A stretch of DNA of 49,269 nucleotides. It comes from a virus (lineage: Duplodnaviria > Heunggongvirae > Uroviricota > Caudoviricetes). Within the stretch, counting starts at the first letter, position 1. Each line of letters starts with the position of its first letter. The stretch is taken from IMG/VR virus record IMGVR_UViG_2778261422_000003; one strand, written 5' to 3'. The position numbers were made by a program, and so were the translations under genes. The notes under the pieces are model-generated. The model was not told the origin of the DNA, made no database searches, and worked only from the letters and a program-made list of their open reading frames with translations. Shown here in pieces: positions 1-39,715 of the stretch.

Positions 1-1284
1 TTACAGACTTCTGGAAGGTTGCGCAGCTCTTACAACACGCGGTTGATCTTCCGCAGCGTCTTCCAGCGCACTTAAATCACGGTCTTTCACCTCTGGCATT
101 TTCAGCGCAGAGATTAAACCAATTACTGAATATGCCATGATCATAATGGCGATCGGATACCAGGATTCCGTCATGGTGCAGAAAATACCCGCCAGGATAG
201 GACCAAAACCGGAAGCGATAAGACCACCAATTTCTTTAGAAATAGCCATCCGGGTAAAGCGGTTTTTACAGCCGAACATTTCTGCCATGGTAATGTTTTC
301 CAGAGCAAATAATCCCAGCACCGCACAGTTATGAATCACAATCAGTGCAACCATAATGGTGCTCGGGGCATAGCTTTTATCTACAATGATAGAAAGCATT
401 GGCCATGCCAGCACAATCGCGGAGGTATTCATAATAATATACGGGATCCGGCGACCAATTTTATCGGATAACCAACCAAGGAATGGAATGGTCATAAAGC
501 CGAGAATCGAACTAATCATCAATGCATCTGTTGGAATTGCTTTGTTAAACAATAACGTCTGCACTAAATAGCCTGCAAGGAAAGTCTGAATTAACCCGGA
601 GTTACCCGCCTGACCAAAACGCAGCCCTGTTGCCAGCCAGAAGGATTTGCTCTGGAACATGCTACCAGCAGGTGCAGGTTTTGCTGTGGGTTGGTTGCTG
701 TCATTAACCTTCTCAAAGACCGGGCTTTCTTTCAGATTCATACGTAACCAGATAGCAAAGACCATCACGACAACGCTCGCCAGGAACGGTATACGCCATC
801 CCCACGCCAGCAGTTCCTCTTTACTGAGAATGAAGAACATAAAGGCCCAGATTGCCGTTGCGCTCAAGGTTCCGCAGTTAGTTCCCATAGCTACAAATGA
901 GGAGATAATTCCGCGCTTACCTTTTGGTGCATATTCCGCCAGCATCGTACCGGCACCGGAAATTTCCGCACCTGCACCCAACCCCTGAATAATACGCAGC
1001 GTCACCAGCAAGATGGGGGCAAAAACACCAATCTGTGCATAGGTCGGTAACACACCAATTAAGGTGGTACAGATCCCCATCATGGTGATGGTAATAAAGA
1101 GCACTTTTTTACGCCCTATTCTGTCGCCCATTTTGCCGAAAATAAATGCTCCGACAATACGCGCCACATAACCTGCACCGTAGGTTCCCATTGCCAAAAT
1201 TAACGCCATTGCCGTTGATGATTCAGGAAAAAATATTTCATGAAACACCAACGCTGCGCCGAGCGAATATAACTGGAAATCCAT
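1..1284 (-). CDS. ydfJ: MFS-family metabolite:H+ symporter, host gene whose 5' end abuts the prophage junction
   Basis: 427-aa ORF, highly hydrophobic, with MFS loop motif GDRIGRKK; translation matches recalled E. coli YdfJ; ORF starts about 40 residues into a typical MHS transporter; phage-type sequence follows past 1284. Confidence 0.85.
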   Translation of the reverse strand: MDFQLYSLGAALVFHEIFFPESSTAMALILAMGTYGAGYVARIVGAFIFGKMGDRIGRKKVLFITITMMGICTTLIGVLPTYAQIGVFAPILLVTLRIIQGLGAGAEISGAGTMLAEYAPKGKRGIISSFVAMGTNCGTLSATAIWAFMFFILSKEELLAWGWRIPFLASVVVMVFAIWLRMNLKESPVFEKVNDSNQPTAKPAPAGSMFQSKSFWLATGLRFGQAGNSGLIQTFLAGYLVQTLLFNKAIPTDALMISSILGFMTIPFLGWLSDKIGRRIPYIIMNTSAIVLAWPMLSIIVDKSYAPSTIMVALIVIHNCAVLGLFALENITMAEMFGCKNRFTRMAISKEIGGLIASGFGPILAGIFCTMTESWYPIAIMIMAYSVIGLISALKMPEVKDRDLSALEDAAEDQPRVVRAAQPSRSL

Positions 1285-2070
1285 AATTCACAGGTGTTTT
1301 TTCCCATCCTGTGGTTTCCTTGGCGTTTTCTAGGTTTTTTCAGATAGTTGCATTTTTTTAAAAAGCATCCTAAGTTCGATCTCAGTGTCTATCTGGGGCC
1401 TATTTCTGTCCCATATATGCCCCAAAAAAACTCCCCAACAGATAAGTAGTTTTTTCATGGATTTATGCGTAAAATCAAGAACGGCTGGAAATCATTCAAT
1501 ACTCACACTATCGAAAAATTTACCAGCCAATCGCAGCACGTTCTTGCATAAGGCGTGTCTGCGGTTTTTCAACTATTCAGATACATCACTCCCATCACAT
1601 TCATTCCTCCGCATCAAAGGCATATAGGCTATATCACCTTGATATTTTTCTTTTTCAGATAAAAACTGTTATCTATGTATACTTTTAAACCCAATCCGTG
1701 TAGAGTCTCTACATAAGATAGTTTGCAGTTGCCGCTTCAGCTTGCGCCATAAACCGCCTGATTTTTGCTGCCACCTGTTAGCATTCCTGTATACCTGAAA
1801 CGACAATGTTTATCTACGAACTTTAAGAACACCCAAGATAAAAATTGTCAACTATATCATATATAACACATTACTAATTCGAGGCTATATGAACAGCATA
1901 CTGATAATCACATCTCTCCTTATCATATTCAGCATTTTTAGTCATGCCCTAATAAAATTAGGGATTGGCATATCCAATAACCCAGACAAAACCGATGTAT
2001 AAGTCAACATATCCTGAATCAGACATACAATATCGCAATGAAAATCAATAATATTTTAAGGAATATCTTC

Positions 2071-2304
2071 ATGAAATCAAAAGACACCCTAAAGTGGTTC
2101 CCTGCGCAGCTTCCTGAAGTAAGAATTATCCTAGGGGATGCTGTAGTGGAAGTAGCAAAACAGGGAAGACCTATCAATACCAGAACATTGCTTGATTACA
2201 TTGAAGGAAACATAAAGAAAAAATCATGGCTGGATAACAAAGAATTATTACAAACAGCGATATCAGTTCTTAAAGACAACCAAAATTTAAATGGTAAAAT
2301 GTAA
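2071..2304 (+). CDS. ydfK: small YdfK/YnaE-family prophage protein (cold-shock-induced family)
   Basis: ORF 2038..2304; internal ATG at 2071 preceded by aagga RBS gives a 77-aa product matching recalled YdfK (MKSKDTLKWFPAQLPEVRIILGD...). Confidence 0.7.
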   Translation: MKSKDTLKWFPAQLPEVRIILGDAVVEVAKQGRPINTRTLLDYIEGNIKKKSWLDNKELLQTAISVLKDNQNLNGKM

Positions 2305-2620
2305 TATAATAAACTTACTTTTTTATCATTTTTCCACTTTAACAACATTTTGCTCCACTTTTCCACGACCAAACAACTTGAAATCTGGTTAAAATAACAC
2401 GCAACACTATTCTTCTTCCTTGAGTCCGCCCGGAACTCGAAAAACAAACCGAGTTAAAGCCATTTTTCACAAAATCGATTTTGGGTCTCACCAAAATTAC
2501 GGGGTTGCATACGCATTCGTTTATTTTCGAACGTGTACATACAAATATGCACAAAAATAATCATAATTATTTTCTGAGATGCATTATGATATGAACACCA
2601 ATTTCGTATAGAGTCTCACT

Positions 2621-3211
2621 ATGTCTCAAATTTTTGCTTACTGTCGGATATCAACGCTGGATCAGACCACCGAAAATCAACGCCGGGAAATCGAAAGTGC
2701 AGGTTTTAAAATCAAACCTCAGCAAATAATCGAAGAACACATTAGCGGCTCAGCAGCAACCAGTGAGCGTCCTGGTTTTAACCGGTTGCTTGCTCGCCTG
2801 AAATGTGGTGATCAATTGATTGTGACAAAACTGGATCGCCTTGGTTGTAATGCAATGGATATCAGGAAAACAGTGGAACAACTGACCGAAACAGGTATCA
2901 GAGTGCATTGCTTAGCATTGGGGGGCATTGACCTGACCAGTCCAACAGGAAAAATGATGATGCAAGTAATTTCAGCAGTCGCTGAATTTGAACGAGACCT
3001 TTTACTTGAACGCACTCATTCCGGGATAGTAAGAGCCCGCGGCGCAGGGAAACGTTTTGGTCGACCACCTGTGTTAAATGAAGAACAGAAACAGGCGGTA
3101 TTCGAACGAATTAAGTCAGGTGTAAGTATAAGTGCCATTGCCCGGGAATTCAAAACCTCGCGGCAAACCATTTTAAGAGCCAAAGCAAAACTTCAGACAC
3201 CTGACATATAA
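2621..3211 (+). CDS. pin: serine-recombinase DNA invertase (Pin/Gin/Hin family)
   Basis: 196-aa ORF with resolvase-type N-terminus ([12 protein letters not shown], catalytic Ser) and C-terminal HTH; lies next to tail-fibre genes as in e14 and Qin. Confidence 0.9.
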
Positions 3212-3308
3212 AAAATAATCTCGGTGTGAGATGCTTTACGTCTTCCAAGCCCCCTTCCTTGCCGTAAATGGAAAGATACATCTAATTATAGAATTTATAT
3301 GTTTTACC

Positions 3309-3884
3309 CTACGGCAGTGCTGGCCATTCAATATCCTGTGCAGTTGACGTATCAACACGGTTCAGCAATACCCGATACTTTTTCCATGCTTCCAGCAACG
3401 AGATTTCTTCCTCCGTTGCAATTTCCAGATCTGCAGCATCCTGAAGCGGCGCAATATGCTCACTGGCTACCTGCATCAGGTTGTTTTTTGTTTCTTCCGC
3501 CTCCCGGATCCGGAACAGTTTTTCTGCTTCCGTATCCTTCACCCAGGCTGTGCCGTTCCACTTCTGAAACTCCCCTTCCGGCGATAACCAGGTAACATTT
3601 TCCGGTAACGGACCGAGTTCAGAAATAAATAACGCGTCGCCGGAAGCCACGTCATAAACCGTTTTACCCCGATGATCTTCAACGAGATGCCACGATGACT
3701 CATCACTGTTGAAAACAGCCACGAAGCCAGCCGGAATATCTGGCGGTGCAATATCGGTACTGTTTGCTGGCAGACCTGTATGAGGCGGAATATATGCATC
3801 ACCTTCACCAATAAATTCATTAGTTCCGGCCAGCAGATTATAAATTTTTATGGTCCGTGGTTGTTCACTCATTCTGAATGCCAT
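3309..3884 (-). CDS. tfa: tail fibre assembly protein Tfa
   Basis: 191-aa ORF; near-identical by recall to lambda Tfa ([39 protein letters not shown]...); start overlaps stf stop. Confidence 0.9.
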
Positions 3885-6800
3885 TATGCAAGCCTCACAA
3901 TATAGTTAAATGCGATGTTTTTGACGGTGTTTTCCGCGTTACCAGCAGCGTTAACGGTGATGGTGTGTCCATGTGAACCAATCGCAACGGAGTGCGTATG
4001 AGCACCAATACCGACAGTATGTGCATGTGCGCCTGCGCTTGCAGCAGTGCCGGACAGCGAGTGGGTATGAGCACCATCTGATGATGTCTTCCCTGCATTA
4101 CGAGTCTGGCCACTACCGCTTGTTGTGCTCATAATCCCCGCGCTTAGATTTGAAATCGCGGTATAACCATTAGGGAAAATGCTCGTGTTCGTGCCACCAA
4201 ATGCACCGGAACTCTTGTGTTGGTGCGCACCGGCACTATTTGCGGTCCCGCTAATACTATGGGTATGCGCCCCGGTGTTATTCGTGGATTTGGTTCCGTA
4301 ATCAAACGACGATGTGGTTTTCGTCCCCAAATCCGTACTGGATGCGCTGGCGCTGTGGGTGTGCGATTTAATGCCGTCCTGTTCCTGAGATAATACGGCC
4401 CGACCACTGGCGGGCTTGCCCTTAATCGTCCAGCCACGCATATCAGGGATCACGCCTGACGGATAAGCAACTGCAAGTTTCGGGTATGCAGATTTGTCAA
4501 AAGTCTGCCCCTGCATCAGGGCATAACCAGACGGAACGGTATCTGATGGCCACGGGATTGGTGCACCGACTGGATAAAACTCTGCAGGAGGATGAGCCGA
4601 GGTGTAAAGCTGCGCCCACGGCGACCAGTTTGCGTCGGTCGTATCCCGTCGTGAACGAATAAATGCCGGAGCATGAGCACCGCTTGTACCACTCCAGCCG
4701 ATGAGTAACTCACCTTCGCCAACGGCTGTCATCCCTTTCAGGTGAATGATATTTCCATACGCTGTTGGATATCCGTTGTTATACACCTCGTATAACTCAA
4801 GACCTGCTGCCCCCTGCGTATTGTCTGTCAGCGCGGTTACCCGACCTTTTGAAGCCAGATTAACTGATGATACTGCTGTTCCACCTGACGGTAACGCCCC
4901 GATCTCTGATGCCGTTGGCTTATTTCTGGAGTTATAGTCCCTTCGCCAGCCAGGTGAATAATCTGTTCCGTGATTAATATAGGTAAACTGGGCGTTAGTT
5001 GTTCCACCACCAGTGGAGGTGGTCGGTGTGGTAATGCGGATCGTCATCGCTGACTTTATCCCCATTACTTCAATGACAGCTCCGGCGAGATGAATATTAC
5101 CGCAGTCAGTATCAGTAATGATTTTATTATTGCCATAAGACCAGGAACCCTTGCACATCCAGTATGGATGGTTAAATGCTCCCTGAGAATCCAGCCACTC
5201 GATAAACTGTGCAGTCGTCCAGTTTCCTGTTGTTGTGCTTACTGACCCACCGAAGGCACGGCAGGCACCAATATTTTTCGTAAAGGTATCTTTGCCAGGG
5301 ATATCCGCACCGTTCTGATCTTTCTGCAGACGTTTCTCAGCATTGTCATTGGCTGCTTTTACTGCCTTTGGTGTCGCGGCAAGCGTTTCAGACGTGCTGT
5401 TGGTCGCGCTGCTTAGCTGGATTATCCCTTTCTGTGCTGTCGTTGCATCCTGTGCGGTGTATTTCCCGTTAGCCAGGTCATACGCGGCCTTAACGGCTTT
5501 TGGTGTTGCCGCCAGTGACTCGGAAGTGCTGTTAGTCGCACTACTGAGCTGTACTATCCCCTTTTTCGTCGTGCTCGCATCCTCAAGCGCCACGGCGGAT
5601 GCAATATCCTCTGCCCGTTTTGCTGCTGTCTCGGCGCGCGTTGCTGCGGATTCTGCCGTACTTTTGCTCTGTGCTGCCGTTGCCGCACTGCCAGCAGCCT
5701 CTGTCGCCTTCGTGGATGCCGTCGTGGCGCTGCCCCTCGCTGCTGACGCCTGTCTGGTCGCCTCATCTTTTGAAGCAGACGCCGATGATGCCGATGACGC
5801 CGCCGAACTGGCGGACGATGCGGCAGCCGTTTTTGAGGATTCTGCGCTGGTTTCCGACGCTTTCGCGTTCGTTTCGGATGTCTTCGCTGCGGAAGCAGAC
5901 CTCGCTGCTGCGCTGGCCTGTTCAGTGGCTTCGCCAGCCTTCGTTGTGGCTGTTGAAGCGGATGATGCGGCGCTTTCTGCCGATTTTCCGGCGGCGGTGG
6001 CACTGACTGCTGCCTCCTCTGCCTTAATGGACGCCTCACGGGCCGATGATGCAGCTGTTGTCTCAGAGTCTGCCGCAGCTGAGGCGCTCTGTTCCGCTGC
6101 CGTTTCAGAAGACCTGGCGTTCGTCTCGGACGTTTTTGCCGCCTTCGCAGAATTTGCTGCCGCCGTTGCCGAGGAAGCGGCACTACTGGCGCTTGATGAT
6201 GCGTTCGTTTCTGATGATTTCGCTGCCTCTTTTGAGGCCGCCGCATCCCGGGCTGAAGTGGCGGCTTCTGACGCTTTCGTCGTCGCAGTGGATGCAGAAG
6301 TGGCTGCTGATTTTTGTGACGCTGCAGCATTCGTTTCTGACGTTTTCGCGGCACCGGCACTGGTGGCCGCCGCGCTTTTTGAGGACTCTGCAGCGGCAGC
6401 ACTTTTTGATGCTTCAGTGGCCTTTGTTGATGCCGTTCCTGCGCTGGAAGACGCCTCCTGAGCCGACGTCGCGGCCTGTCCGGCTGACGTGCTGGCTGCA
6501 CGCGCTGAGCCTGCAGCATCAGTCGCATGGGTTGCCGCCTCACTGGCAGATGTGCCGGCATCACTGGCTGACTTCTTCGCGGCTGCCGTGTTCTGTGCCA
6601 CCGCGGACGCGTTACGCGCCACCTCTTCCACCATCAGTTCAAAACGGCGCAGAGCCTCCGGACGGGCATCATCCTCCGTCATGGCACCGAGAAAATCATT
6701 CAGCGTACCGGGTCGGGAATCTTCATACACGGTGATGGTCCCGGCATGTGACGGCGGGAATCCTTCCACCAACAGAATAACGCTGTACTGACCGTACTCA

Positions 6801-6964
6801 ACGTCCATGCTGTAACGCCCGGCTTCATCCGGATTTTCTGAGGCCAGCGTGTTCACCACCACCGTGGTGCTGTTACGTTTTGCTTTCAGCTGGATTGTGC
6901 AGTTCTGTACCGGTTTTCCTGTGCCGTCTTTCAGTACACCTGAAATCTTAACTGCCATATTCAC
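3884..6964 (-). CDS. stf: side tail fibre protein Stf with long Ala/Ser/Thr-rich repeat shaft and His-rich distal tip
   Basis: 1026-aa ORF; N-terminus resembles lambda Stf ([26 protein letters not shown]...); internal low-complexity repeats; C-terminal GAHTHS/GAHAH/GSHGH boxes. Confidence 0.85.
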
Positions 6965-6968
6965 CCCA

Positions 6969-6996
6969 CAAAAAAGCCCGCCTGAACCGGCGGGCT
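6969..6996 (-). terminator. intrinsic terminator downstream of lom
   Basis: GC hairpin agcccgcc/ggcgggct at 6975..6996; on the minus strand it is followed by a T run (ttttttgtgg). Confidence 0.6.
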
Positions 6997-7022
6997 GTCA
7001 TAACACTGTGTTACCTGGCTAA

Positions 7023-7622
7023 TCAGAACTTATAACCGACACCCACGATGAAACCGTCAGTGCGCCAGTCGCCACTGCCGGAGCCTTCATAAGCAATATC
7101 AATGGCCACGGATTCGGTCGGGTTAAACTGCACGCCAGCTCCCCACGCCAGAGACGTGTTGCTGTGGCGACCGTCATCACTTCCGGTCAGCACGTCGTGC
7201 GTTTTCCCCTTGTTGTCAGTTACGCGGAGATAATCCCCGGAGAAAGTCGACACACGGCTGTAAGCCACACCCGCCATCGCATACGCGCTGAACCATTCAT
7301 TCACGCGCACAGACGGCCCCGCCATTACGCTGAACCAGCGGTTACGAACGGAATCTTCATGCCAGCGGGTATCGCTGTAATGGGTCAGCTGGCGATTCTT
7401 GTCTCCTGCATAGCTGAATGACGTCACCAGCCCCAGCGTATCCGTAAACTCATAACGGTATTTCACGTTAATCCCGTTCAGATCATCACTGCCGGGAACG
7501 TTGGTCCGGGCATGAAGATACCCCGCGCTCAGCGTGGACTGATGTTCAGACGCCCATGCAGGCGCACCGGATACGGCCAGACAAATGGCTGCGGACAAAA
7601 TGGCTGCACAAACTTTACGCAT
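7023..7622 (-). CDS. lom: outer-membrane beta-barrel protein Lom (Ail/Lom family)
   Basis: 199-aa ORF with signal peptide (AICLAVSGAPAWA) and C-terminal GYKF; matches recalled lambda Lom; sits between J and stf. Confidence 0.85.
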   Translation of the reverse strand: MRKVCAAILSAAICLAVSGAPAWASEHQSTLSAGYLHARTNVPGSDDLNGINVKYRYEFTDTLGLVTSFSYAGDKNRQLTHYSDTRWHEDSVRNRWFSVMAGPSVRVNEWFSAYAMAGVAYSRVSTFSGDYLRVTDNKGKTHDVLTGSDDGRHSNTSLAWGAGVQFNPTESVAIDIAYEGSGSGDWRTDGFIVGVGYKF

Positions 7623-7644
7623 AATTACCTCTCGCTTTTCTGCA

Positions 7645-7670
7645 ATAAAAAAGGCGTCATTCCTGACGCC
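7645..7670 (-). terminator. intrinsic terminator downstream of J
   Basis: hairpin ggcgtca-ttcc-tgacgcc at 7653..7670 followed on the minus strand by ttttttattg. Confidence 0.55.
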
Positions 7671-7692
7671 ATTTATTGGGGTTATAAATATT

Positions 7693-10600
7693 TCAACGAA
7701 TACTGATGCCTGAAGCCGCTTTTTTGGTCACAATCACCGTACAGTCGGTGATATTACCTGCCCGCTGATTGCCTTTATGGAAAACCTTAAACTCCAGAGT
7801 GACGCTTCCCCTGCCACTCGGCATATCAATAACCGCACTGTAGCTACCGGGAATGGCCCCTTTAGTTTCTCTGGATGCGATTAATACACCGTTTTTGCGA
7901 ACTTCAAAACCATAACCCGTGTATCTTGTACCTCCCGGGTTATTACCACTTCCCGGATCGCTATACGCTATTCCGTTAAAGATAATGGGCGGAATAATGA
8001 TTTGACGGTCAAAGTTATGATCATCGCTGATGGTGACTGTAACCGTCCCGTTTGGTGTTTCCGTGTTACCCCACGTACCAGCCTGTTTCGGAAATGATTT
8101 GGATACAGCTTTAACGAAGTCACCTCTGACCTGAGTCGCCTCCAGCATGCCCTTAATCGTACAGTTCTGGTTAATCGTGACATTGTTGAGCGTTCCTGAG
8201 TTCGCATTCACACTACCACTGATATCCGCATTTTTAGCGGTCAGCTTTCCGTCTGATGTCAGGGAAAATACCGGAGGACTGCCACCGCTGGTAATGGTGG
8301 GGGCTGTCAGGCGCTTCAGGAACACGTCGTTCATGAATATCTGGTTGCCCTGCGCCACAAACATCGGCGTTTCATTCCCGTTTGCCGGGTCAATAAACGC
8401 GATACGGTTAGCGGCAACCAGAAACTGGCTCAGCTTGCCTTCCTCCGTGTCCTCCATGCTGAGGCCAATACCCGCGACATAATGTTTGCCGTCTTTGGTC
8501 TGCTCAATTTTGACGCCCCACATGGCATTCCATTTATCGTTAGCGTCCTTCCACTCTTTCGAAAACTCATCCAGTCTGCTGGCGTTATCCTCCGTCAGAT
8601 CAACTTTTTCCAGCAGCTCTTTACCGAGATGGGATTCGGTTATCTTGCCTTTGAAAAAATCCAGGTAACCTTCCGCATCATCGCTCGCCCGACCGACGGC
8701 CTCCACGAATGCCGATTTGCCAACGGTGTTCACACTGCGGATATAAAAGTAATAATCATGGCCCGGTTTGATATTGATACTGGCGGCTATCCAGTACAGC
8801 GCCGTACCAAGATAGCGGGCTGTGGTTTCAACCTGCCTGATATCGGTAATCCGCTTTTCCGAGAACCAGAACTCAAACTGTACCGTCGGGTCATAAACCG
8901 CAAGATGCGGCGTGGCGGTTATCTGAAAATAGCCCGGTGTCAGCTCAATCCGAGACGGCGCTGCCGGTGCGGCAATCCGGAACGATACCGATGCCGGATC
9001 GCCCTGCTGTCCCCACGCATTTACCGCCCGGACCGTCAGCGTGTAACGCCCCAGCGCCAGTTGCCTGAAGCGGTATGTGGTTTCCGTCGTCCGGGCCGTG
9101 CTGACCAGCCGCTCACTGCCGTCATCCGCTGTTACGGTCAGACGGAGCAGGAAGCTCACGCCCTTCACCACCTTCGGCGTGTCCCAGCGAGCCAGCACCT
9201 GATATTCCCCGCTGTCTGCGGTGACTTCGGCGGTCAGGTGCTGCACCGCTGGCGGCGTGACACCATTCACCGTGCCGCTCTGGTCGCCGTCAAAGTGCGC
9301 CCCGTTATCCACGATGGCCTCTTTTTCCGGTACATGCTGCACGGCGGTGATGGCATACGTGCCGTCGTCGTTCTCACGGATACTCACGCAGCGGAACAGG
9401 CGCTGGCGCAGCGTCGGCAGCTTCAGCCCCCACACGCTGTATTCTGCAACACCGTCAGGAACACGGCTCACTTTCACCTTCACGCCGTCGGTGACGGACT
9501 GAACCTCCACGCTGACCGGATTGCCACTTCCGTCAACCAGGCTTATCAGCGTGGTACCGGAGGATGGCAGAGTGATTTCACGGTCGAGCGTCAGCGTCCG
9601 GGTCTGGCTGTTCACCGCCAGCACGCGCCCGCCGATGCTGATACCGGCATAGTCATCATCGCAGATTTCAATGACATCGCCCGGTACATGGCGAAGCCCT
9701 TCAGCACCCACGCTGAAGTCCACGGTCTGCGTTTCCAGCAGTTCCGTTTTAATCAGCCACAGCCCGGCGCGGTGTGCCTGCCCCCGACTGGTACAACCAA
9801 AGGCATCCATCTTCGTGACATTACGACCGTAACGGGCAATGGCCTGCGTATCTTCAACAAGCTCTGTCGCCGTCTCCCAGCCGTTGTTCGGGTCAATCCA
9901 GTTCACCTCAACGGCATTATGGCGGTCCTTCAGGGCGCTGAAGCTGTAGCGGAACGGCGCGCCATCATCCGGCATCACCACATTACTGCGGTTATAGGTC
10001 CACACCTTATCTGATGGTCGGTCCTGCACGAACGTCAGCGTCTGCCCGTTCCATACCGGCATACAGCGCATCGCCGAGCAGAAATCACTGAGCACATCCC
10101 ACGCCTTACGTTGTGTGGTCAGGTAAGCGTTACAGGTGATGCGCGGCTCCGTACCGCCAAAGCCGTCCGGCACCGACTGGTCGCAATTCTGGCCGATGAC
10201 ATACAGCGCCCATTTATCCACATCTGCCGCACCAAGACGTTTCCCCATGCCGTAGCGCGGGTGGGTCAGCATATCCCACAGACACCAGGCCATGTTGTTG
10301 CTGTATGCCGGTTTTAACGTTCCGTCCCAGATACCGCTGTATTGCCGCGTCTGCGGGTTATAATTCGACGGCACCTGCAGAATGCGCCCGCGAAGATGAT
10401 AATTACGGCTCACCTGCTGGCTGCCGAACTGCTCCGAATCCACCTGCACGCCGACCAGTGCCGTGTTCGGGTAGCACTGTTTCACATCGATGATTTCGGT
10501 GTATGACGACCAGAGCGTTTTGTTCTGCAGCTGGTCTGTGGTGCTGTCCGGCGTCATTCTGCGCATCCGGATATTAAACGGGCGCGGCGGCAGGTTATCC

Positions 10601-11106
10601 ACCACCACCGAGGCCAGATACTGCGAGGTGGTTTTGCCCTTAATGGTGATATCTTTTTCCGTCACCCAGCCACCATTACGCTGTATCTGAACCAGCAGGC
10701 GAACTTCCGACGGATTCCGGTCCCCCTTTGAGGTGGTTTCCACCAGTGCCTGCACACCGAAGGTAAAGCGCAGTCGGTCGATGTTTGCCGACGTGATGGC
10801 GCGGGTGATCGGCGTGTCGTATTTCACTTCCGTACCCAACACCGTCTCGGAGCCGGAGGATTCAAACCCCTCCGGCGGTGTCTGCTCCTGCTCACCGGCA
10901 CGGAACACCACCGTGACACCGGAGATGTTGGTATTCCCCTCAGTGTCCAGCACCGGCGTACTGTTCAGCAGCACGCTTTTTAATCCATCCACCGGACCTT
11001 CAACCGGCCCTTCGCTGATGGCATCGATCACACTCAGCAACTGCGTGGACTTCAGGTTGTCCTTCGCTTCGCGCGGGGTATGCCCCTTACTGCTTCCTTT
11101 ACTCAT
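7693..11106 (-). CDS. J: tail tip / host-specificity protein J
   Basis: 1137-aa ORF; most of it matches recalled lambda J ([24 protein letters not shown]...); the C-terminal ~150 residues differ from lambda J. Confidence 0.9.
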
Positions 11107-11166
11107 TCCTCACGCTCCATAAATGACAAAACCGCCCGCAGGCGGTTTCACATAAAACATTTTGCA

Positions 11167-11838
11167 TCAGCGACCAATCACCACAACCTGACCACCGTCC
11201 CCTTCGTCTGCCGTGCTGATCTCCTGAGAAACCACGCGTGACCCCACGCGCATTTCCCCGTACAGAACAGGCAGAACATTGCCCTGGGCAACCATGTTAT
11301 CCAGTGAGGAGAAATAGGTGTTCTGCTTACCGTTATCCGTTGTCTGTGTACGGGGAGTTCTGGCTTTCGGTGCCAGCATCTGCGCCACACCACCGAGCAC
11401 CATACTGGCACCGAGAGAAAACAGGATGCCGGTCATACCACCGGCCCCAATGGCTGCCCCCCATGCTGCAAGGGTGGCTCCGGCGGTAAAGAATGATCCG
11501 GCAATGGCGGCAGCCCCCAGGACAATCTGGAATACGCCACCTGACTTGGCCCCGGCGACTCTGGGAACAATATGAATCACAGCGCCATCAGGCAGAGTCT
11601 CATGTAACTGCGCCGTTAACCCGGACGTGCTGACGTCCCGCCCGGCAATCCGTACCTGATACCAGCCGTCGCTCAGTTTCTGACGAAACGCCGGGAGCTG
11701 TGTGGCCAGTGCCCGGATGGCTTCAGCCCCCGTTTTCACACGAAGGTCGATGCGGCGACCAAATCGTTGTAAATCCCCGTAAAGGCAGATGCGCGCCATG
11801 CCCGGTGACGCCAGAGGGAGTGTGTGCGTCGCTGCCAT
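11167..11838 (-). CDS. I: tail assembly protein I
   Basis: 223-aa ORF matching recalled lambda I (MAATHTLPLASPGMARICLYGDLQRFGRR...). Confidence 0.9.
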   Translation of the reverse strand: MAATHTLPLASPGMARICLYGDLQRFGRRIDLRVKTGAEAIRALATQLPAFRQKLSDGWYQVRIAGRDVSTSGLTAQLHETLPDGAVIHIVPRVAGAKSGGVFQIVLGAAAIAGSFFTAGATLAAWGAAIGAGGMTGILFSLGASMVLGGVAQMLAPKARTPRTQTTDNGKQNTYFSSLDNMVAQGNVLPVLYGEMRVGSRVVSQEISTADEGDGGQVVVIGR

Positions 11839-12479
11839 TTGTCGGTGTACCTCTCTCGTTTGCTCAGTTGTTCAGGAATATGGTGCAGCAGCTCACCGTC
11901 ACCACAGTAAATGGCGGCATGATTCGGCACCGATGAACCAAAACAGCACAGCAGCACATCGCCCGGCTGCGCCGCTGACAACGGCACCTGATACAGCCCT
12001 GTGGCCTCCAGATTATCCAGATAGAGATTCTGACCGTGACGCCACCAGTCATCCCCGCGATGAAAATCCGGCATCTCAATCCCCGCCAGATGATAAGCAT
12101 CCCGGAACAGCGTGTAACAGTCCGTCACCCCGTGCTCAAAGCGCCGCCCGGTGAGATGCGGCACACAGCGGAACTTATGAATCGCCCCCCGGCAGACCAG
12201 CCACCACGGCAAATCACTCTGCACCTGCAGCCGCCGGTCAGCCTCACTCAGCCAGGGCAGACCACCGGGGTGGCTGTGGACCAGCGCCACAATCTCACCC
12301 TGCATTTCTGCCTGCAGCCAGTCCTCCGGAGCCATCCGGAAATAATCCTCCGGCTCACCGGAAATATTCACGCCGGGAAAATATCTTTCCCCCTCCGGCG
12401 TGCTTACCACGAAGCCGCACGACTCCGCTGGCGCACATCGCCGGGCGTGCGCCAGAATCGCTGATTCTGTCTGTGTCAT
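11736..12479 (-). CDS. K: tail assembly protein K (JAB/MPN plus NlpC/P60 domains)
   Basis: 247-aa ORF matching recalled lambda K (MTQTESAILAHARRCAPAESCGFVV...; HSHP motif); overlaps I as in lambda. Confidence 0.9.
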   Translation of the reverse strand: MTQTESAILAHARRCAPAESCGFVVSTPEGERYFPGVNISGEPEDYFRMAPEDWLQAEMQGEIVALVHSHPGGLPWLSEADRRLQVQSDLPWWLVCRGAIHKFRCVPHLTGRRFEHGVTDCYTLFRDAYHLAGIEMPDFHRGDDWWRHGQNLYLDNLEATGLYQVPLSAAQPGDVLLCCFGSSVPNHAAIYCGDGELLHHIPEQLSKRERYTDKWQRRTHSLWRHRAWRASAFTGIYNDLVAASTFV

Positions 12480-12484
12480 GGGAT

Positions 12485-13183
12485 TTACTGCGAAAGTTTG
12501 TTAATGGAAAGGAAGCCGCCAAAGTTGCCGACGTTATTGCGAAACTTACAGCCGCTCAGGCATTTGCTGCATTTATCCTTCGTGATATCGGACGTTGGCT
12601 GGTCATATTCATCCGCGACCGCCGGACCGTGATAACCGCACTCATCGCCGCGATAGGTCCAGGTGCAGGTGTTGGCCAGCATGATACGTCCCGGAAAAAC
12701 AGCGCCGTCCGTTTCCGTCGGCGTGGACAGTACAAAAGAGGCACTCACCGCGCTCAGTTCGCTGCACTGCTCAATGCGCCAGCGGCTGATCACCTCCTGC
12801 TCCGGATCGGCGTCACTGTTTCCGTTGACGAAGTTCACCGCATCCAGAAAACGGGCGTAAACCTTACGCCGGACCACCGTTCCGCCGACCAGACTCTGCA
12901 GATCTTCCGCCATCCCGGTGACCATACCGTACAGGTTAGAAACCGTCAGTGTGGGGCGCGTACTGGTGCCTTTGCCATTCAGTTCAAAACCACTCCCCTG
13001 AATGGGATACGGCTGATACTGTCGCCCCTGCCAGGTGACCGGCTCACCTTTTTCGTTCTGCTCATTACAGAAAAAATAACGTTCTCCACCGACCTCTGTC
13101 AGGTCGATTTCCCAGAGCACCACGCTGGCCGACTGCTCCGCACGGGTGCATTCATTCAGTGTTTCCTGCCGGATATCCTGCAT
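12485..13183 (-). CDS. L: minor tail protein L
   Basis: 232-aa ORF matching recalled lambda L, including the C-terminal Cys cluster. Confidence 0.9.
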   Translation of the reverse strand: MQDIRQETLNECTRAEQSASVVLWEIDLTEVGGERYFFCNEQNEKGEPVTWQGRQYQPYPIQGSGFELNGKGTSTRPTLTVSNLYGMVTGMAEDLQSLVGGTVVRRKVYARFLDAVNFVNGNSDADPEQEVISRWRIEQCSELSAVSASFVLSTPTETDGAVFPGRIMLANTCTWTYRGDECGYHGPAVADEYDQPTSDITKDKCSKCLSGCKFRNNVGNFGGFLSINKLSQ

Positions 13184-13512
13184 CAGTTCACCACCTGTTC
13201 AAACTCTGCGCTGAACTCAACACGCAGCATACTGACCCGCGACGACCATTTTGCGCAGGTCACCTTTATCTGCCGCCACTCATAAGGCGGCGTCCACAGA
13301 AAGGCTTTCCAGCCCCCGTGCTCAGCCAGAAACGACTCCAGCGCCGTGGCCTCCCAACGGGGAACAGAAAGCGTCACGCTGTACGTTTTCAGGTCGGCAT
13401 TCAGCCCGGCAGGCGCTCGCTGGGAATAGCCATCACCAAAGCGCACTTTCCTGACGGAAGGGGCCGAAGCCACATCCATACCGGGTTTCACTTTCCAGCG
13501 GAAGGTCTTCAT
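13183..13512 (-). CDS. M: minor tail protein M
   Basis: 109-aa ORF in lambda M position, start overlapping L stop; recalled similarity. Confidence 0.85.
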   Translation of the reverse strand: MKTFRWKVKPGMDVASAPSVRKVRFGDGYSQRAPAGLNADLKTYSVTLSVPRWEATALESFLAEHGGWKAFLWTPPYEWRQIKVTCAKWSSRVSMLRVEFSAEFEQVVN

Positions 13513-16070
13513 CGTCCACCTCCGGAGAACAGACCACCATCGCGCATCTGTGCCTGAATTTCATCACGGGCACCCTTGCGGGCCATGTCATACACAGCCT
13601 TCATCATCTGTGGACCTGGCAGACCATTCGTACCGTCGTTCTGAATCACCACGTGATTGTTCTGATTAAAATTAATGCCTTCAGCCCGCCGCATCTGCGC
13701 CGGACTTCCGGCACCGCCCACATAACCACCTTCCGCATAGCCCCGCATCAGGCGGTACAGGTTGCCGACACCAATCCGGCTGGTTGCCTCCTTCGTGAAG
13801 ACAAACTCACCACGATGAACAATCCCCGCTGGCTCATATTTGCCGCCGGTTCCCGTAAATCCTCCGGTCGCAAAATGGAATTTCGCCGCAGCGGCCTGAA
13901 TGGCTGTACCGCCTGACGCGGATGCTCCACCACCGGCAGCCCCGCCAATGGCGCTGCCAATACTCCCGACAATCCCCACCATTGCCTGCTTAAGCAGAAT
14001 TTCTGTCATCATGGACAGCACGGAGCGGGTGAAGCTGCGCCAGTTCTGTTCACTGCCGGTCAGCATCGCCGCCATATTCTGCGCAATACCATCAAAGGTC
14101 TGCGTGGCTGCACTTTTTACCTGCGACATACTGCCCGTGGCGCTCTCTTCCCACTCACTCCAGCCGGACTTGAGGCCTGCCATCCAGCTCCCGCGAAGCT
14201 GGTCTTCAGCCGCCCAGGTCTTTTTCTGCTCTGACATGACGTTATTCAGCGCCAGCGAATTATCGCCATACTGTTCCTTCAGGCGCTGTTCTGTGGCTTC
14301 CCGCGCTGCCTGCCGGTCAGTAAGCCCCCGGTTTTTCGCCTCAATGGCTGCCCGTTTTGCCCGTTGCTGCTGTGCGAATTTATCCGCCTGCTGCGCCAGC
14401 GCATTCAGGTGCTCCTGATACGTAACCTTGTCGCCCAGTGCAGCCAGCTGACGTTTGTACTCCAGCGTCTCGTCTTTATGCGCCAGCAGGGATTTCTCCT
14501 GTGCAGACAGCTGGCGACGTTGTGCCGCCGCCTCCAGTACCGCAAACTGACTTTCCGCCTTCCACAAATCCCGGCGCTGCTGGCTAATTTTCTCATTCGC
14601 TCCGGTATGCTTTTCCAGTGTCCGGAGTTCTGCCTGAAGCGCCAGCAGGACAGCATGAGCACCATCTTCCTGACGATCGCCCGCAGACACCTTCACGCCG
14701 GACTGTTTCGGCTTTTTCAGCGTCGCTTCATAATCCTTTTTCGCCGCCGCCATCAGCGTGTTGTAATCCGCCTGCAGGATTTTCCCGTCTTTCAGTGCCT
14801 TGTTCAGTTCTTCCTGACGGGCGGTATATTTCTCCAGCGGCGTCTGCAGCCGTTCGTAAGCCTTCTGCGCCTCTTCGGTATATTTCAGCCGTGACGCTTC
14901 GGTATCGCTCTGCTGCTGCGCATTTTTGTCCTGTTGAGTCTGCTGCTCAGCCTTCTTTCGGGCGGCTTCAAGCGCAAGACGGGCCTTTTCACGATCATCC
15001 CAGTAACGCGCCCGCGCTTCATCGTTAACAAAATAATCATCCTTGCGCAGATTCCAGATGTCGTCTGCTTTCTTAAACGCAGCCTCTGCCTTAATCAGCA
15101 TCTCCTGCGCGGTATCAGGACGACCAATATCCAGCACCGCATCCCACATTGATTTGAATGCCCGCGCTGTCCTGTCTGCCCAGGTCTCCAGCGTGCCCAT
15201 GTTCTCTTTCAGGCGGCGGGTCTGGTCATCAAACCCTTTCGTTGCGGCCTCGTTCGCCGCCTGCAATGCCCCGGCTTCATCGCCGGAACGCTGCAACTGA
15301 GCAACATACGCAATCTGCTCCGCCGTCACGTTATGGAACTGGCGTGCCATCGCCGTCAGCCCCGACGTCGGGTCAGTGGTCAGCTTCCCGAAGGCTTCAG
15401 CGACCTTGTCCACCTCCACGCCGGATGCAGAGGAGAAACGCGCCACACTCTGGCTGATGGACGCAATCTGAGCCTCACCGCTTACCCCCGCCTTAACCAG
15501 TGCGCTGAGTGACTCGCTGGTCTGGTTAAACGTCAGCCCTGCCGCCTGCCCGGCTCTGGACAGGACCAGCATACGATCTGCCGTCAGTCCCGCCTGATTA
15601 CCGGAAAGGACCAGCGTTTTGTTGAAATCGGACAGGGTTGAGTTGCCCTGATACCAGGCATACGCCAGCGCACCGGTCGCCACCGCCAGCGAGGTGGCCC
15701 CGACCATCGGCAGGGTGATCGCACCGGCAAGCCCCCTGAACATGGGGATCATCCCGCCGAAGGAGTCCTTAACCTGACCACCCTGTTGCAGCAGGATCAG
15801 CCACGGACTCTGCCCGCCTGCAAGCTGCGTGGCCACGTCGGTGAACTGTGCAGGGAGCATACGCATGGCGGCTTTATACTGTCCGACGGAAATCCCCGCT
15901 TTCTGTGCAGCCAGCGCCTGCCGGTTCATTGACTGTTCAACGACTGCCGCTGTTTTTTTCGCATCACTTTCCGTACCGGAAAAATGACGCCTGACTCTGG
16001 CCATCTGCTCGTCAAATCTGGCCGCATCCAGACTTAAATCAACGACCAGATCGCCTACCGGTTCAGCCAT
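13509..16070 (-). CDS. H: tail tape-measure protein H
   Basis: 853-aa ORF, coiled-coil and Gly-rich, in H position between G-T and M; recalled lambda H similarity. Confidence 0.9.
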   Translation of the reverse strand: MAEPVGDLVVDLSLDAARFDEQMARVRRHFSGTESDAKKTAAVVEQSMNRQALAAQKAGISVGQYKAAMRMLPAQFTDVATQLAGGQSPWLILLQQGGQVKDSFGGMIPMFRGLAGAITLPMVGATSLAVATGALAYAWYQGNSTLSDFNKTLVLSGNQAGLTADRMLVLSRAGQAAGLTFNQTSESLSALVKAGVSGEAQIASISQSVARFSSASGVEVDKVAEAFGKLTTDPTSGLTAMARQFHNVTAEQIAYVAQLQRSGDEAGALQAANEAATKGFDDQTRRLKENMGTLETWADRTARAFKSMWDAVLDIGRPDTAQEMLIKAEAAFKKADDIWNLRKDDYFVNDEARARYWDDREKARLALEAARKKAEQQTQQDKNAQQQSDTEASRLKYTEEAQKAYERLQTPLEKYTARQEELNKALKDGKILQADYNTLMAAAKKDYEATLKKPKQSGVKVSAGDRQEDGAHAVLLALQAELRTLEKHTGANEKISQQRRDLWKAESQFAVLEAAAQRRQLSAQEKSLLAHKDETLEYKRQLAALGDKVTYQEHLNALAQQADKFAQQQRAKRAAIEAKNRGLTDRQAAREATEQRLKEQYGDNSLALNNVMSEQKKTWAAEDQLRGSWMAGLKSGWSEWEESATGSMSQVKSAATQTFDGIAQNMAAMLTGSEQNWRSFTRSVLSMMTEILLKQAMVGIVGSIGSAIGGAAGGGASASGGTAIQAAAAKFHFATGGFTGTGGKYEPAGIVHRGEFVFTKEATSRIGVGNLYRLMRGYAEGGYVGGAGSPAQMRRAEGINFNQNNHVVIQNDGTNGLPGPQMMKAVYDMARKGARDEIQAQMRDGGLFSGGGR

Positions 16071-16901
16071 ACCGGACTCCTCCTGTGATCCCTTCTGAGA
16101 CTGTCATCAGCATTACGTCATCCTCCGTCATGTCCGCCACATCCGGGGAAGCGGGGATAACTTCATTCCCGTCCGGGCCAAAGCGGACGCCTCCGGCAAG
16201 CCCTGCCGCTTTCTGCATCAGCACATCATCTTCAGGCTCTTCGTCAGCCTCGCGCCGGTTCAGAAGACTGAAATCCAGCGGATGCATATCCGGATCGCTG
16301 AAAAACAGGCTGAGCACGGTATATGTCAGCCCGGAAAAGTGCATATCCAGCAGAACATCATGAAAATAATGGGTACTGTAAAAGCGGTGCCAGTCGGCAT
16401 ACTCCGTGGATGACATCCCGGCAAGCATGGCGCGCCAGTCGGGTCGCCCCATCTCACGCGCCAGTTTCAGGGCAAAACTCAGCTCACCGTCGAACACTTT
16501 CCCGCAGAAACAGGCTCTGCTGGCCCGGCGTCATCTGCCTGTTCAGGTGCATCATTCACAACAAACTCAGACATACCGGACAGACGCATTACCACATTTT
16601 CAGCCTGAGCAATTGCCTCTGTGGGCCAGGTGGTAAGCACTTCCTGCTCAATTTGTTTAACGGCTTCATTCATGGACGGCATCTTTGTCTTCTGCGGATG
16701 GCTATGCCACAGGGACATCGCCACCAGAAAAGCACCGGTTCTGACGAGATCTTCCACGCTCACCTGTCGATTGAGACTGGATCCCGCCTGTTCTGCCTGT
16801 CGTTTCAGCAGGGCGAGATGCTCAATTCGCTGCAGGGCTGACAGTTCAGAAAGCGTGACGCTCACACCGTTATATTCAAATGATTCGGTTTTCAGGAACA
16901 T
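16063..16901 (-). CDS. tail assembly chaperone G-T fusion made by programmed -1 ribosomal frameshift
   Basis: T-frame ORF 16063..16497 overlaps the 3' end of G in the -1 frame; the slippery heptamer GGGAAAG lies at about 16497..16503 on the coding strand, as in lambda. Confidence 0.8.
16479..16901 (-). CDS. G: tail assembly chaperone G
   Basis: 140-aa ORF matching recalled lambda G (MFLKTESFE.NGV.VTLSELSALQRIEHLAL...). Confidence 0.9.
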   Translation of the reverse strand: MFLKTESFEYNGVSVTLSELSALQRIEHLALLKRQAEQAGSSLNRQVSVEDLVRTGAFLVAMSLWHSHPQKTKMPSMNEAVKQIEQEVLTTWPTEAIAQAENVVMRLSGMSEFVVNDAPEQADDAGPAEPVSAGKCSTVS

Positions 16902-16916
16902 CGCTGACTCTCCGGA

Positions 16917-17657
16917 TTAACTGTCGGTGACGGTGATTTCTGCAACCACAGCAAGTTCACCATTACCGGATACAACCGGAATGTTGACCTTGCCTGCAGC
17001 AACACCTTTCACGGTGATGGTCATACCACTGACCGACACGGTGGCTTTTGTTTTATCCGCAGACACCGCACGGAAGCTCTTGTCGGTTGCGCCTTCCGGC
17101 TGGAATGCCACGGTCAGCGTGGTGCTCTGCCCTTTCACCACCGAAGTGCTGGCAGGCGTCACGGTCATGCCGGTTGCCGCTGTTACCGTGCTGCGATCTT
17201 CTGCCATCGACGGACGTCCCACGTTGGTGACTTTCACCGTGCGGGTGATCACTTCCTTCGCCGTCACCGCCTTACCGATACTGCTGACCCAGCCGCGGAA
17301 CACATCGACCGTGCCGTTCGGGAAGCGGATTTTATAGGCACGGGTATCCCCTTCATTAAACCACGCCAGCAGCGCCTGCTGCCCCTGCTCTCCGGGCATC
17401 CACGCCAGCGTGAAGCTGGTATCTCCGGCAGATTTCTGCCCCTGCCCGGTCGCAGTCCAGTCCGCATCTTCATCATCGAGATAGCTGTCGTCATAGGACT
17501 CAGCGGTCAGTTCGCCGGGCGTCAGGTCTTTAACTTTAGCCAGACGCGACCAGTCAACGTCTGAAAGCGGGTTCGCATAAGGGTCACCGTTCCCCTTATA
17601 AACCCACAGTGTGGTCCCGGCACCTTTCACCGGCATTGTTGGATTTGGTACAGGCAT
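16917..17657 (-). CDS. V: major tail tube protein V with C-terminal Ig-like domain
   Basis: ORF 16917..17687; internal start [22 protein letters not shown] matches recalled lambda V N-terminus, giving 246 aa. Confidence 0.9.
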
Positions 17658-35988: not shown

Positions 35989-37177
35989 AGCCTGCTTCTC
36001 CTTGCCTTCCGGCACGTAAGAGGCTAACCTACATGTGTCTAGCATGAAATTGGCCTCAGATTAATGTTAAGCGTCTTGCAGGACGCGTAATGTTAACTGG
36101 GGCTTTTCTCTATCTGCCTTTGGTGTTCACGCCCGAGGCAGATAGCCTCAAGCACCCGCAGGCATTCTACTTAACTCCCGTTACCTCGCCAATATGCAAT
36201 CAGTCAGAAAGGCGATCCATAAGAACAATGGCAAGAAAATAAATCGCCATTACAGCCGCAATAGCCAACGCACATTTGAGAACCAGCACCACAACCTCCT
36301 GTATTGGACGTACACCAGTCCTGATAAATATGAGGCTGTCTCGTCAGTGATTCAATGCAACTATTAGATATAGTTTCTCTGTTTTTTCTATGGAAATGGG
36401 ACACAACAACCTGTCGCAACCAACGCTTCTTTAAACAGACTAAATCAGGCGCAAGTCAACATTTTGTACAAGCAGAACGTAACCTGTTCTAACAGAACTC
36501 TTTGAATGAACAGCAATGATTACGCTCACAACGACTGATTGTTATTTGATATAATCCCCTGTACTCCTACGGCTATGCACGTTCAACTCCAGCGTTACAT
36601 TCGGTACCGGATAGTAATTCCATTCTCGGACATGGTATGAACGTAACCGGGTTGCCTCGACGTCCGAACGATTGCCTTAGTACGATGTGTTTTATATTTT
36701 TGCCTAACATCTGCTGGAAAGTTTCACCAATCACCATTTTATCCCAGCTTTCAAAGGATTTCTGGAACCAGAATAATTTTCTGGCGCAGGAATCTTCTTC
36801 ATTTATTACATCCTCCACCAGTAAAGTTATCAATGATTCAACTTAACATACGGTAATGATATCCACTTTAGTTCTACACACTTTAGAGATTTTCATTTTT
36901 TCTATCATCAGTCAGTACTCTTCTGAGTGACCGGCTATTCAGGTATTCATAAAGTCGCTCGCTGTTGTATTGGCAACTTCTGGATCTGGGACTAAGCAAA
37001 CCACTAAGTTGGAAAATGTCCGCTGTGAGCGAGCAGTGGTCATTGCTTACAGCATTCTATGTGAATTAACAGTGGACTAGGCACAATGAACACCTGAGGG
37101 ATCACATTTCATAGGTGACAGTTAAACGCGCTATAAGCAGTCCTTAACAAGAAGGACTGTTATCTGAACTGCCTTGA

Positions 37178-38134
37178 CTAGTCTAGTCTCTGTGGAAAGA
37201 GCGCAAGATGCAGATCACCATACTTATCAGGATTTGAATTTATATGCATCAGCAAAACATCCAACTGATTTGTTAAATATTTATTCCTTTCTTTTTTCTC
37301 TTTATCTTCAATATCCTTGAGATTTTTCTTTTCTTCTTTTTCAATGGCTTTCCTTTCCTTTTCAGCTTTTTCCCTAATGTTTACATCTGCCAGTTTTTTA
37401 GCTTTATCCGCTCTAAACTTAATTAAATTATCAACAATACTCTTAACATATTGTTTACCAGATAGTATTTTTCTCGCCTCTTCGATAATAGTAATACTGT
37501 AATCAACACACTCATTACCATATTTAAAAGCATACTCAGGGGATAATTCTTTTATAGCTGAGGAACTAGAATTATCAGACAAATATGGTTCACTTAAATG
37601 AGCGAAAGATCCCCTATACGAGGAGAAATTTTCCCATGACGAAAAGTTTTCATCTTCCACATCACAATGAATACCTACAGATTGAAGAACAGAATTTAAA
37701 TGCTTTGTTTTTATTCCGTGATTGGAAGTGATGACACTCTTCCATTTCATGATAGTCCTCATTTCACAATCAACAATAAACTCAACAACATGTTGTTTTA
37801 TATAAGAACTATCATCATCCCTATCATCAGCATCCTCGTTAGTAACAAATCTGTCATCATAACTTTTCGTCCCATTTAATAAAAACATCAATGGTATAGT
37901 AACCTCCCCACATTCTTTGAACAGGAAAAACGAATATTTAGCGACAAAAAGGCTGACATCCTCAACAAAATTTTCAAGAGCTGCATGTAATAGAACACAA
38001 TAACTTCTTGTATCTAATTTAAATTCCTCAACACTACCAGTACCGTTCATGTGTTTTTTAAGAAAGCGATTATACAAGGCATCATTTGCGTCATACAGAG
38101 TGTAATACATATCATCTAATAAGGTAATCTCCAT
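37178..38134 (-). CDS. uncharacterised protein, distal gene of the AT-rich cargo operon; candidate effector partner of the DUF262 protein
   Basis: 318-aa ORF starting 5 nt after the upstream gene's stop (operon-like); very AT-rich codon usage; R-x4-H motif (YRGSFAH); acidic patch (EDADDRDDD); Lys/Glu-rich coiled-coil C-terminus. Confidence 0.75.
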   Translation of the reverse strand: MEITLLDDMYYTLYDANDALYNRFLKKHMNGTGSVEEFKLDTRSYCVLLHAALENFVEDVSLFVAKYSFFLFKECGEVTIPLMFLLNGTKSYDDRFVTNEDADDRDDDSSYIKQHVVEFIVDCEMRTIMKWKSVITSNHGIKTKHLNSVLQSVGIHCDVEDENFSSWENFSSYRGSFAHLSEPYLSDNSSSSAIKELSPEYAFKYGNECVDYSITIIEEARKILSGKQYVKSIVDNLIKFRADKAKKLADVNIREKAEKERKAIEKEEKKNLKDIEDKEKKERNKYLTNQLDVLLMHINSNPDKYGDLHLALFPQRLD

Positions 38135-38138
38135 TTTT

Positions 38139-39326: not shown

Positions 39327-39715
39327 CTTATTTACTATGTTAAGTAGTAAGAGTCAAGTTGACTCATCTTAAAATCTACCTTCCCTTCCTTGTCTAGCAC
39401 CGGAAGACAAACGTCCCACAGTGTTTTTTTACTGCACTCTCATCTCGAAAGCTATAAGTAGTTCTCTGTGCCATTCTACTGCTGGTTTCAAGGAATATTA
39501 TCTGGTTTCCAATTTTACAATATCTACTCTATTTTTGTATCGACTAATGCTATAAGCAATATAACTGAAGCACACTTTATTATGCTACCCTCCATTTTCG
39601 GCTATGATTCAAACCTACAAACATTGAATTTACTGTTATAAGGAGATTTTTACCACGTCCGCTTCTGGCATAAAGTTGACATACGGATACGAACGAAATA
39701 AGTGCTCTAGAATTC

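Follow-up and report, generated by a model that had tools for sequence, protein, structure and literature searches.

The window, that is, the whole stretch of 49,269 nucleotides that was analysed, is occupied by a lambdoid prophage of full length that is integrated at ydfJ (the Qin site), with a truncated ydfJ at positions 1-1284 and the end of the integrase gene at 49269. The minus-strand gene at 7693..11106 encodes J, the tip attachment protein or central tail fibre, as a single intact open reading frame of 1137 aa plus the stop codon; both the ORF list and the translation indicate a full-length reading frame that is interrupted by neither a frameshift nor a stop. The assignment of this gene to J in the first-pass annotation is upheld by the match of the protein to PHROG 31 ("central tail fiber J") and by the Pfam domains that it contains, in the order FNIII-A_GpJ, Phage-tail_3, Ig_J, Ig_J_second, Phage_Tail_Tip and Ig_GpJ_C, all with scores above the curated cutoffs. 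According to Pfam, this is the complete lambda-type domain set, comprising the N-terminal hub, the FNIII/Ig domains, the tail-tip fibre and the C-terminal receptor-binding domain (RBD). The upstream neighbours are the same as in lambda (I, K, L, M and H, with matching ORF sizes), and lom, the side tail fibre gene stf (1026 aa; 3884-6964) and tfa (3309-3884) are located downstream. The gene order H-M-L-K-I-J-lom-stf-tfa is thus conserved, and the same order is annotated in the prophage of E. coli W, to which positions 1-17200 of the window are 98.4% identical. A search for an invertible tail-fibre segment beside the pin invertase yielded no convincing inverted repeats.

Over its entire length, J shows 89% amino acid identity to lambda J, and this similarity is unevenly distributed along the protein. 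The lambda-like body, aa 1-973 (8188..11106, minus strand), includes the hub domains, two FNIII/Ig domains, the helical shaft and the beta-prism fibre, as these regions are named in the lambda cryo-EM paper (PMC11101478), and is 97.3% identical to lambda J (NC_001416), in agreement with the earlier claim that most of the protein closely matches its lambda counterpart. At the DNA level, identity to lambda is 96% over nt 1-2820 of J, 89.5% over nt 2821-2925 and 49.5% over nt 2926-3411. When measured in 60-nt windows, the drop is a sharp break, from at least 0.90 to 0.38-0.65, and the divergence from lambda at this break is far beyond chance. Scattered non-lambda differences appear from aa ~941 (window ~8286) whereas the strong divergence is confined to aa 974 (window 8187) and beyond. 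The transition zone in between, aa 941-973 (8188..8286, minus strand), contains the first 434-type and non-lambda substitutions; with 89.5% identity to lambda and 99% identity to phage 434 over nt 2821-2925 of J, it is a probable recombination joint. The junction is common to many natural J variants, and the best explanation is an old, widely shared recombination joint at aa ~941-974 that connects the tip to a near-lambda J body. A natural joint near aa 964 has already been used in the engineering of gpJ chimeras, as described in PMC11338833. The mosaic joint that the first-pass annotation postulated in J is therefore real, with the breakpoint now placed by alignment to lambda J and other J variants, and the limits of 7693-8200 proposed for the non-lambda stretch are accurate because strong divergence begins at window position 8187, the divergent stretch itself being 164 aa long. 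The GC content is 0.45-0.50 over 7400-8400, compared with 0.57-0.64 for the portion of J upstream of ~8800.

The divergent, 434-type receptor-binding module, aa 974-1137 (7696..8187, minus strand), is ~38% identical to lambda when gaps are counted and ~96% identical to 434 without gaps. Most of this module is the Ig-like RBD proper, aa 1001-1136 (7699..8106, minus strand), which is detected by the Pfam family PF12421 (Ig_GpJ_C) with an E-value of 1.3e-25 and a score of 90.5 bits against a cutoff of 26.2. The earlier statement that the C-terminus of J diverges completely from that of lambda is too strong: identity falls to 38-44%, but the two sequences align from end to end, with 65 of the 170 columns identical (42-44% over ungapped columns) and three indels. 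The tip also matches the solved lambda J chains in sequence comparison, with an E-value of ~3e-28. An AlphaFold2 model of the RBD (a monomer, based on a 23-sequence alignment, with a mean pLDDT of 82) retrieved, as the best four Foldseek matches, 9wcb and 9wca (A8 gpJ with and without OmpC) and 8xcj and 8xck (lambda J with and without LamB), with TM scores of 0.71-0.73 and E-values of ~2e-14; the next match, with an E-value of 2e-4, is ten orders of magnitude weaker. Given the end-to-end alignment, the Ig_GpJ_C match and the same predicted fold, the J tip is a different allele of the lambda RBD domain rather than an unrelated sequence. It is clearly distinct from the lambda-type, LamB-binding allele, as the first-pass annotation had maintained, because it shows neither near-identity to lambda J aa ~970-1132 nor the loop lengths of lambda.

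The alignment of homologous tips reveals a conserved framework that consists of C982, the DDHxFDRQ motif, NG, DMPxGxG and KK..GISI. This framework is broken by four hypervariable, indel-rich loops, and the database homologues fall into at least six discrete classes. In the model of the RBD, the strands alternate in such a way that the invariant loops are located at one end of the domain and the hypervariable loops at the other. From this topology and strand alternation, together with conservation, and not from coordinates, we infer that the hypervariable loops at aa 1004-1015, 1046-1063, 1081-1086 and 1112-1116 are the receptor-facing loops L1-L4. The putative L1 (8062..8097, minus strand), which comes after the first model strand, is 5 residues longer than in lambda and hypervariable between classes. 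The putative L2, a loop or hairpin (7918..7971, minus strand), contains a long insertion specific for the 434 class, of six residues compared with lambda, and is both hypervariable between classes and polymorphic within the 434 class. The putative L3 (7849..7866, minus strand) lies between model strands 105-111 and 118-126 and is variable between classes, and the putative L4 (7759..7773, minus strand), between model strands 132-142 and 148-150, is hypervariable and gapped between classes. Polymorphism within the 434 class clusters in L1, L2 and the stretch running into L4 (aa 1107-1115). An extra, longer loop of 434 J compared with phi330 J, predicted to touch OmpC, is described in PMC12502783 and likely corresponds to L2.

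The similarity to phage 434 covers the whole of J. The protein from the window is 98% identical to 434 J (UMO75286.1, OL657226) over 1137 aa without gaps, and the genes are 96.3% identical over their full length. The last 168 aa are 96.4% identical, with six substitutions (S1004A, Q1008K, A1009V, N1019D, S1049D and R1099G, in addition to 13 elsewhere in J) and with all loop lengths kept. Five of these six are located in or adjoin the inferred loops L1 and L2: half of the total (the first three) are within L1, and S1049D is in L2. The module accordingly has the features by which a 434-type allele was recognised, namely at least 90% identity to 434 J aa 970-1137, no indels and the loop insertions of the class. 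The codon differences between the two genes amount to 25 synonymous and 6 non-synonymous changes in the RBD module, and 74 and 13, respectively, in the body; the ratio in the former indicates purifying selection on what is presumably a working domain.

The genes next to the tip tell the same story. Between J and lom, a consensus scan identified a terminator-like hairpin followed by a T-run (7653..7670, minus strand; GGCGTCAGGAATGACGCC then TTTTTTATTG), and a terminator is annotated at the same J-lom site in the phage 434 record. The lom gene (7023..7622, minus strand), which encodes an Ail/Lom outer-membrane protein (Pfam Ail_Lom, E-value 2e-123), is a 434-type allele linked to the tip: the protein is 96% identical to that of 434 and 45% identical to lambda Lom. 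DNA homology to lambda ends at window position 8137 and, except for 59 nt at 7425-7483, is regained only at ~7150, within the 3' end of lom; with 434, in contrast, the homology continues without interruption from 8400 to 6537. These comparisons show that a module of ~1 kb (window ~7150-8187), including the tip, the terminator and lom, is 434-like, with lom apparently co-inherited with the J tip. Beyond ~6537, the side tail fibre differs from that of 434, and the element in the window is a ydfJ prophage, not 434 itself. Geneticists have known the h434 host-range allele of J as a textbook marker since the 1960s-70s. In the hybrid phage lambda h434 imm21 (OM418627), the J gene of which shows 95.9% DNA identity to that in the window, the segment derived from 434 runs from J codon ~705-711 through the tip, lom and stf. 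Because this hybrid also carries the lom, stf and tfa of 434, its sequence alone cannot attribute the host range to the RBD; the hybrid agrees with a location of the marker in this domain but does not discriminate. By sequence criteria, the tip of J in the window is the phage 434 (h434) allele of the C-terminal RBD.

The C-terminal part of J, for the last 160 residues of which the first-pass annotation had recommended a database search, turned out to belong to a discrete class. In a tblastn comparison of the 168-aa tip with 50,697 phage records, the distribution of identities was bimodal, with 74 records at 90% or more, 169 below 60% and none in between; the lambda-type tips in this collection are 39.9% identical to the one in the window. 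The class at 90% or more includes 434, 434B, mEp460, cdtI, Ayreon, many Stx1a, Stx2c and Stx2a phages, and the PhiR phages, and the exact tip from the window represents a cluster of 263 members (P0001). The literature search found no receptor data for IdasGreatGrand, HannyBb, PhiR26/49, ev099 or mEp460, and a 2026 receptor-prediction preprint deals with the GpJ of Drexlerviridae and does not cover this allele.

Sequence divergence alone does not exclude LamB as the receptor, because phage 21 binds LamB with an RBD that is only 51% identical to that of lambda (PMC11336670). Nevertheless, a different outer-membrane receptor, as implied in the first-pass annotation, is to be expected given that the tip is not the LamB-binding allele of lambda. 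The same annotation regarded the receptor specificity as unknown, which no longer holds: for phage 434, and for lambda with the J of 434, use of OmpC is reported in PMC3509688, PMC11101478 and PMC12502783, which cite Hantke 1978 and Fuerst & Bingham 1978, and PMC12502783 describes the central fibre of 434 as "targeting OmpC" and presents an AlphaFold3 prediction in which the 434 J trimer sits on the OmpC trimer and contacts it through three loops. By homology to 434 J, the 96% identical tip in the window is therefore predicted to use OmpC, and it is likely, with good confidence, that OmpC rather than LamB is its receptor.

Several other J tips provide points of comparison. Phage 434 J shares with the window J the RBD loop insertions, the J-lom terminator and the 434-type lom. 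Lambda J (P03749; PDB 8iyk, 8xcj and 8xck), which binds LamB, shares the body, the domain order, the Pfam RBD family, the predicted fold (TM ~0.72) and, presumably, the triggering mechanism, but in the RBD of the window the L1 and L2 loops are longer than those of lambda, and the stretch that precedes the last strand is shorter. The A8 gpJ chimera and phi330 J (9wca, 9wcb) have the same fold and represent the best sequence match (E-value 1.6e-36) as well as the best structural match among the solved structures. The A8/phi330 tip binds OmpC experimentally, as a trimer on the porin trimer (PMC11338833, PMC12502783), but belongs to a separate allele class that is 49-50% identical to the tip in the window and differs from it in loop sequences and lengths; the OmpC-contacting loops of 434 and phi330 are described as not conserved in PMC12502783. 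The RBD of phage 21 J (OL657228) is a member of the same domain family with the same mosaic joint to a lambda-like body and is 48% identical to the RBD in the window; its native receptor is LamB (PMC11336670), yet it shares 82% of its residues with the A8 class. Receptor use in the J RBD family is thus labile, as illustrated by this level of identity between a natively LamB-binding RBD and the OmpC-binding RBDs of A8 and phi330. The possibility that the tip in the window is one of the engineered OmpC-binding tips, A8 or 1A2 (Brödel et al.), was considered and rejected: both belong to other allele classes because they diverge from the window sequence right after the shared ...AATGCGGATATCAGTGG, and the A8 tip is 50% identical to that in the window.

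The lability of receptor use is relevant to the possibility that the tip, although a member of the 434 class, has shifted its specificity to another porin (OmpF, LamB or PhoE) or to particular OmpC variants, such that the OmpC of K-12 is not the receptor. The concentration of the differences from 434 in or next to the inferred L1 and L2, and that of the within-class polymorphism in these loops and at aa 1107-1115, speak for such a shift, and so do two findings on related tips, namely that the gpJ chimera 1A2 binds the OmpC of EDL933 but not that of MG1655 (PMC11338833) and that a single mutation in J gives phage 21 the use of OmpC (PMC11336670), in addition to the similarity between the phage 21 and A8 domains noted above. 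Nevertheless, with 96.4% identity to 434 and every loop length kept, with substitutions that are mostly conservative or represent polymorphisms common to many members of the class, and with no member of the 434 class reported to use another receptor, a shift of this kind appears unlikely. It seems similarly doubtful that the six substitutions tune the allele to particular OmpC polymorphs or permit the use of a second porin. Should this be the case, the loop polymorphism within the class would record an arms race with the variation of the OmpC surface loops, and the prophage would direct both its central fibre and the tip of its side fibre, which resembles that of lambda (70% identity to lambda Stf), at one polymorphic porin.

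Retention of LamB binding in spite of the divergence is the least probable of the alternatives. The tip belongs to the same domain family and has the same fold as the RBD of lambda, and the case of phage 21 demonstrates how distant a LamB-binding RBD can be, but the loops in the window differ from those of lambda in both length and sequence, and 434, which among the characterised relatives is the closest (96% identity), is reported to use OmpC and not LamB. It is also very improbable, albeit slightly less so, that J is an inert relic within a defective prophage, in which case the receptor specificity would have no present function. This possibility is brought up by the integration site, ydfJ (Qin), which in K-12 holds a decayed remnant (PMC3032704). 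However, J is full length, without a frameshift or stop; synonymous changes relative to 434 greatly outnumber non-synonymous ones in both the body and the RBD; the lambdoid genome in the window is full length, with the integrase at one end, ydfJ' at the other and the head and tail genes in between; and near-identical J genes are present in free phages, for example IdasGreatGrand (97.7%) and PhiR26_1 (96.9%).

The predicted use of OmpC by a functional 434-type tip would fit the mode of action known from lambda. In the cryo-EM analysis of lambda (PMC11101478), the J trimer ends in the Ig-like RBD, the four bottom loops of which, L1-L4, enter the extracellular lumen of the LamB trimer; upon binding, the tip spreads, the beta-prism tightens and twists, the helical shaft flips and the tube opens. 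By analogy, the three J chains encoded in the window would form a central tail fibre, with the C-terminal Ig-like domains forming a trimeric tip in which the four variable loops of each subunit would enter the extracellular mouth of a trimeric porin. Because the loops are those of the 434 set, the porin engaged would most likely be OmpC rather than LamB. Binding of the porin would spread the tip, and the resulting twist would travel up the beta-prism and the helical shaft and open the tail tube. Thus, the tip can be predicted to dock on OmpC and to trigger ejection as in lambda, based on homology to the solved lambda J-LamB and A8 gpJ-OmpC complexes; the trimeric docking in this scheme follows the lambda J-LamB structure (PMC11101478) and the title of PDB 9wcb.

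A 434-type tip on J is already known, and its presence in this prophage is ordinary and represents no novelty. The sequence of the h434 allele and its mosaic relationship to lambda have been published (Feiss et al. 2022, PMC9119081) and public since at least 2022, and solved structures exist for related OmpC-binding tips. The value of the present assignment lies in annotation: the Qin-site prophage, in this window as well as in E. coli W and over 2000 other sequenced strains, is predicted to make OmpC-targeting particles, which is relevant for host-range prediction, for superinfection and for the choice of natural gpJ tips for lambda-based delivery vectors. Among the complete E. coli genomes, 2091 of 5426 (~39%) contain a copy of the tip, with at least 80% of the 508 bases covered at 80% or higher identity, and nearly all of these copies are more than 90% identical. 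In a collection with one genome per species, there are, because of this composition, only three tip loci, in E. coli, in Escherichia sp. and on a 1350-bp contig in a 'Collinsella' MAG. E. coli W and its derivatives have the tip at 100% identity, and RefSeq already annotates these copies as gpJ, under the name "gpJ: phage attachment tail tip protein J".

The window (1-49269) coincides exactly with a single, full-length lambdoid prophage located at ydfJ (the Qin site), with a truncated ydfJ at one end (1-1284) and the end of the integrase gene at the other (49269). The 'Qin' prophage of E. coli W aligns with it piecewise at 92-99.6% identity; the counterpart of window ~36000-40700 is absent from E. 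coli W, where its place is taken by an ISNCY transposase fragment and pseudogenes. In K-12, unlike in the window and E. coli W, the Qin site is reduced to a decayed remnant (PMC3032704).

The lom gene (7023-7622, minus strand) is a 434-type allele, the protein being 96% identical to that of phage 434 and 45% identical to lambda Lom. It is part of the non-lambda module that also includes the tip of the tail-tip protein J, and homology to lambda picks up again only at ~7150. Similarity between classes of J tips cannot tell the identity of the receptor because the J receptor-binding domain of phage 21, for which LamB is the reported native receptor (PMC11336670), is 82% identical to the tips of the gpJ chimera A8 (PDB 9wca) and phage phi330, which are 99% identical to each other and bind OmpC (PMC11338833, PMC12502783).

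The side tail fibre gene stf (3884-6964, minus strand) encodes a protein of 1026 aa and is adjoined by tfa (3309-3884, minus strand). The C-terminal ~230 aa of this protein show 70% identity with the C-terminus of lambda Stf (orf-314), the OmpC-binding tip in Ur-lambda, and at the DNA level, window 3319-4021, which spans tfa and the last ~46 stf codons, is 94% identical to lambda. OmpC may therefore be the target of both the central and the side fibres of the prophage. The middle part of stf (~5400-6800) is GC-rich (0.59-0.62), with a strongly negative AT skew (down to -0.49), and contains long mechanical ORFs on either strand, e.g., 5343-6461 (plus) and 5554-6564 (minus); these features are consistent with tail-fibre repeats rich in Ala, Ser, Thr and Gly rather than with additional genes.

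Next to stf and tfa, there is a Pin-type serine invertase (2621-3211, plus strand) containing Resolvase and HTH_7 domains. Neither a second, inverted fibre-tip cassette beside this gene nor convincing inverted crossover sites near it were found, and it therefore looks like an orphan invertase, similarly to pinQ of K-12.

The record NZ_CP026085.1 ('Escherichia coli strain DH5alpha', 4,833,062 bp) encodes a J tip that matches the one in E. coli W at 100% identity; as this genome is larger than that of K-12, its DH5alpha label seems doubtful. Finally, JAGZNZ010000056.1, a 1350 bp contig in a 'Collinsella sp.' MAG that encodes an E. coli J tip of the window type (96% identity), is probably a binning contaminant.
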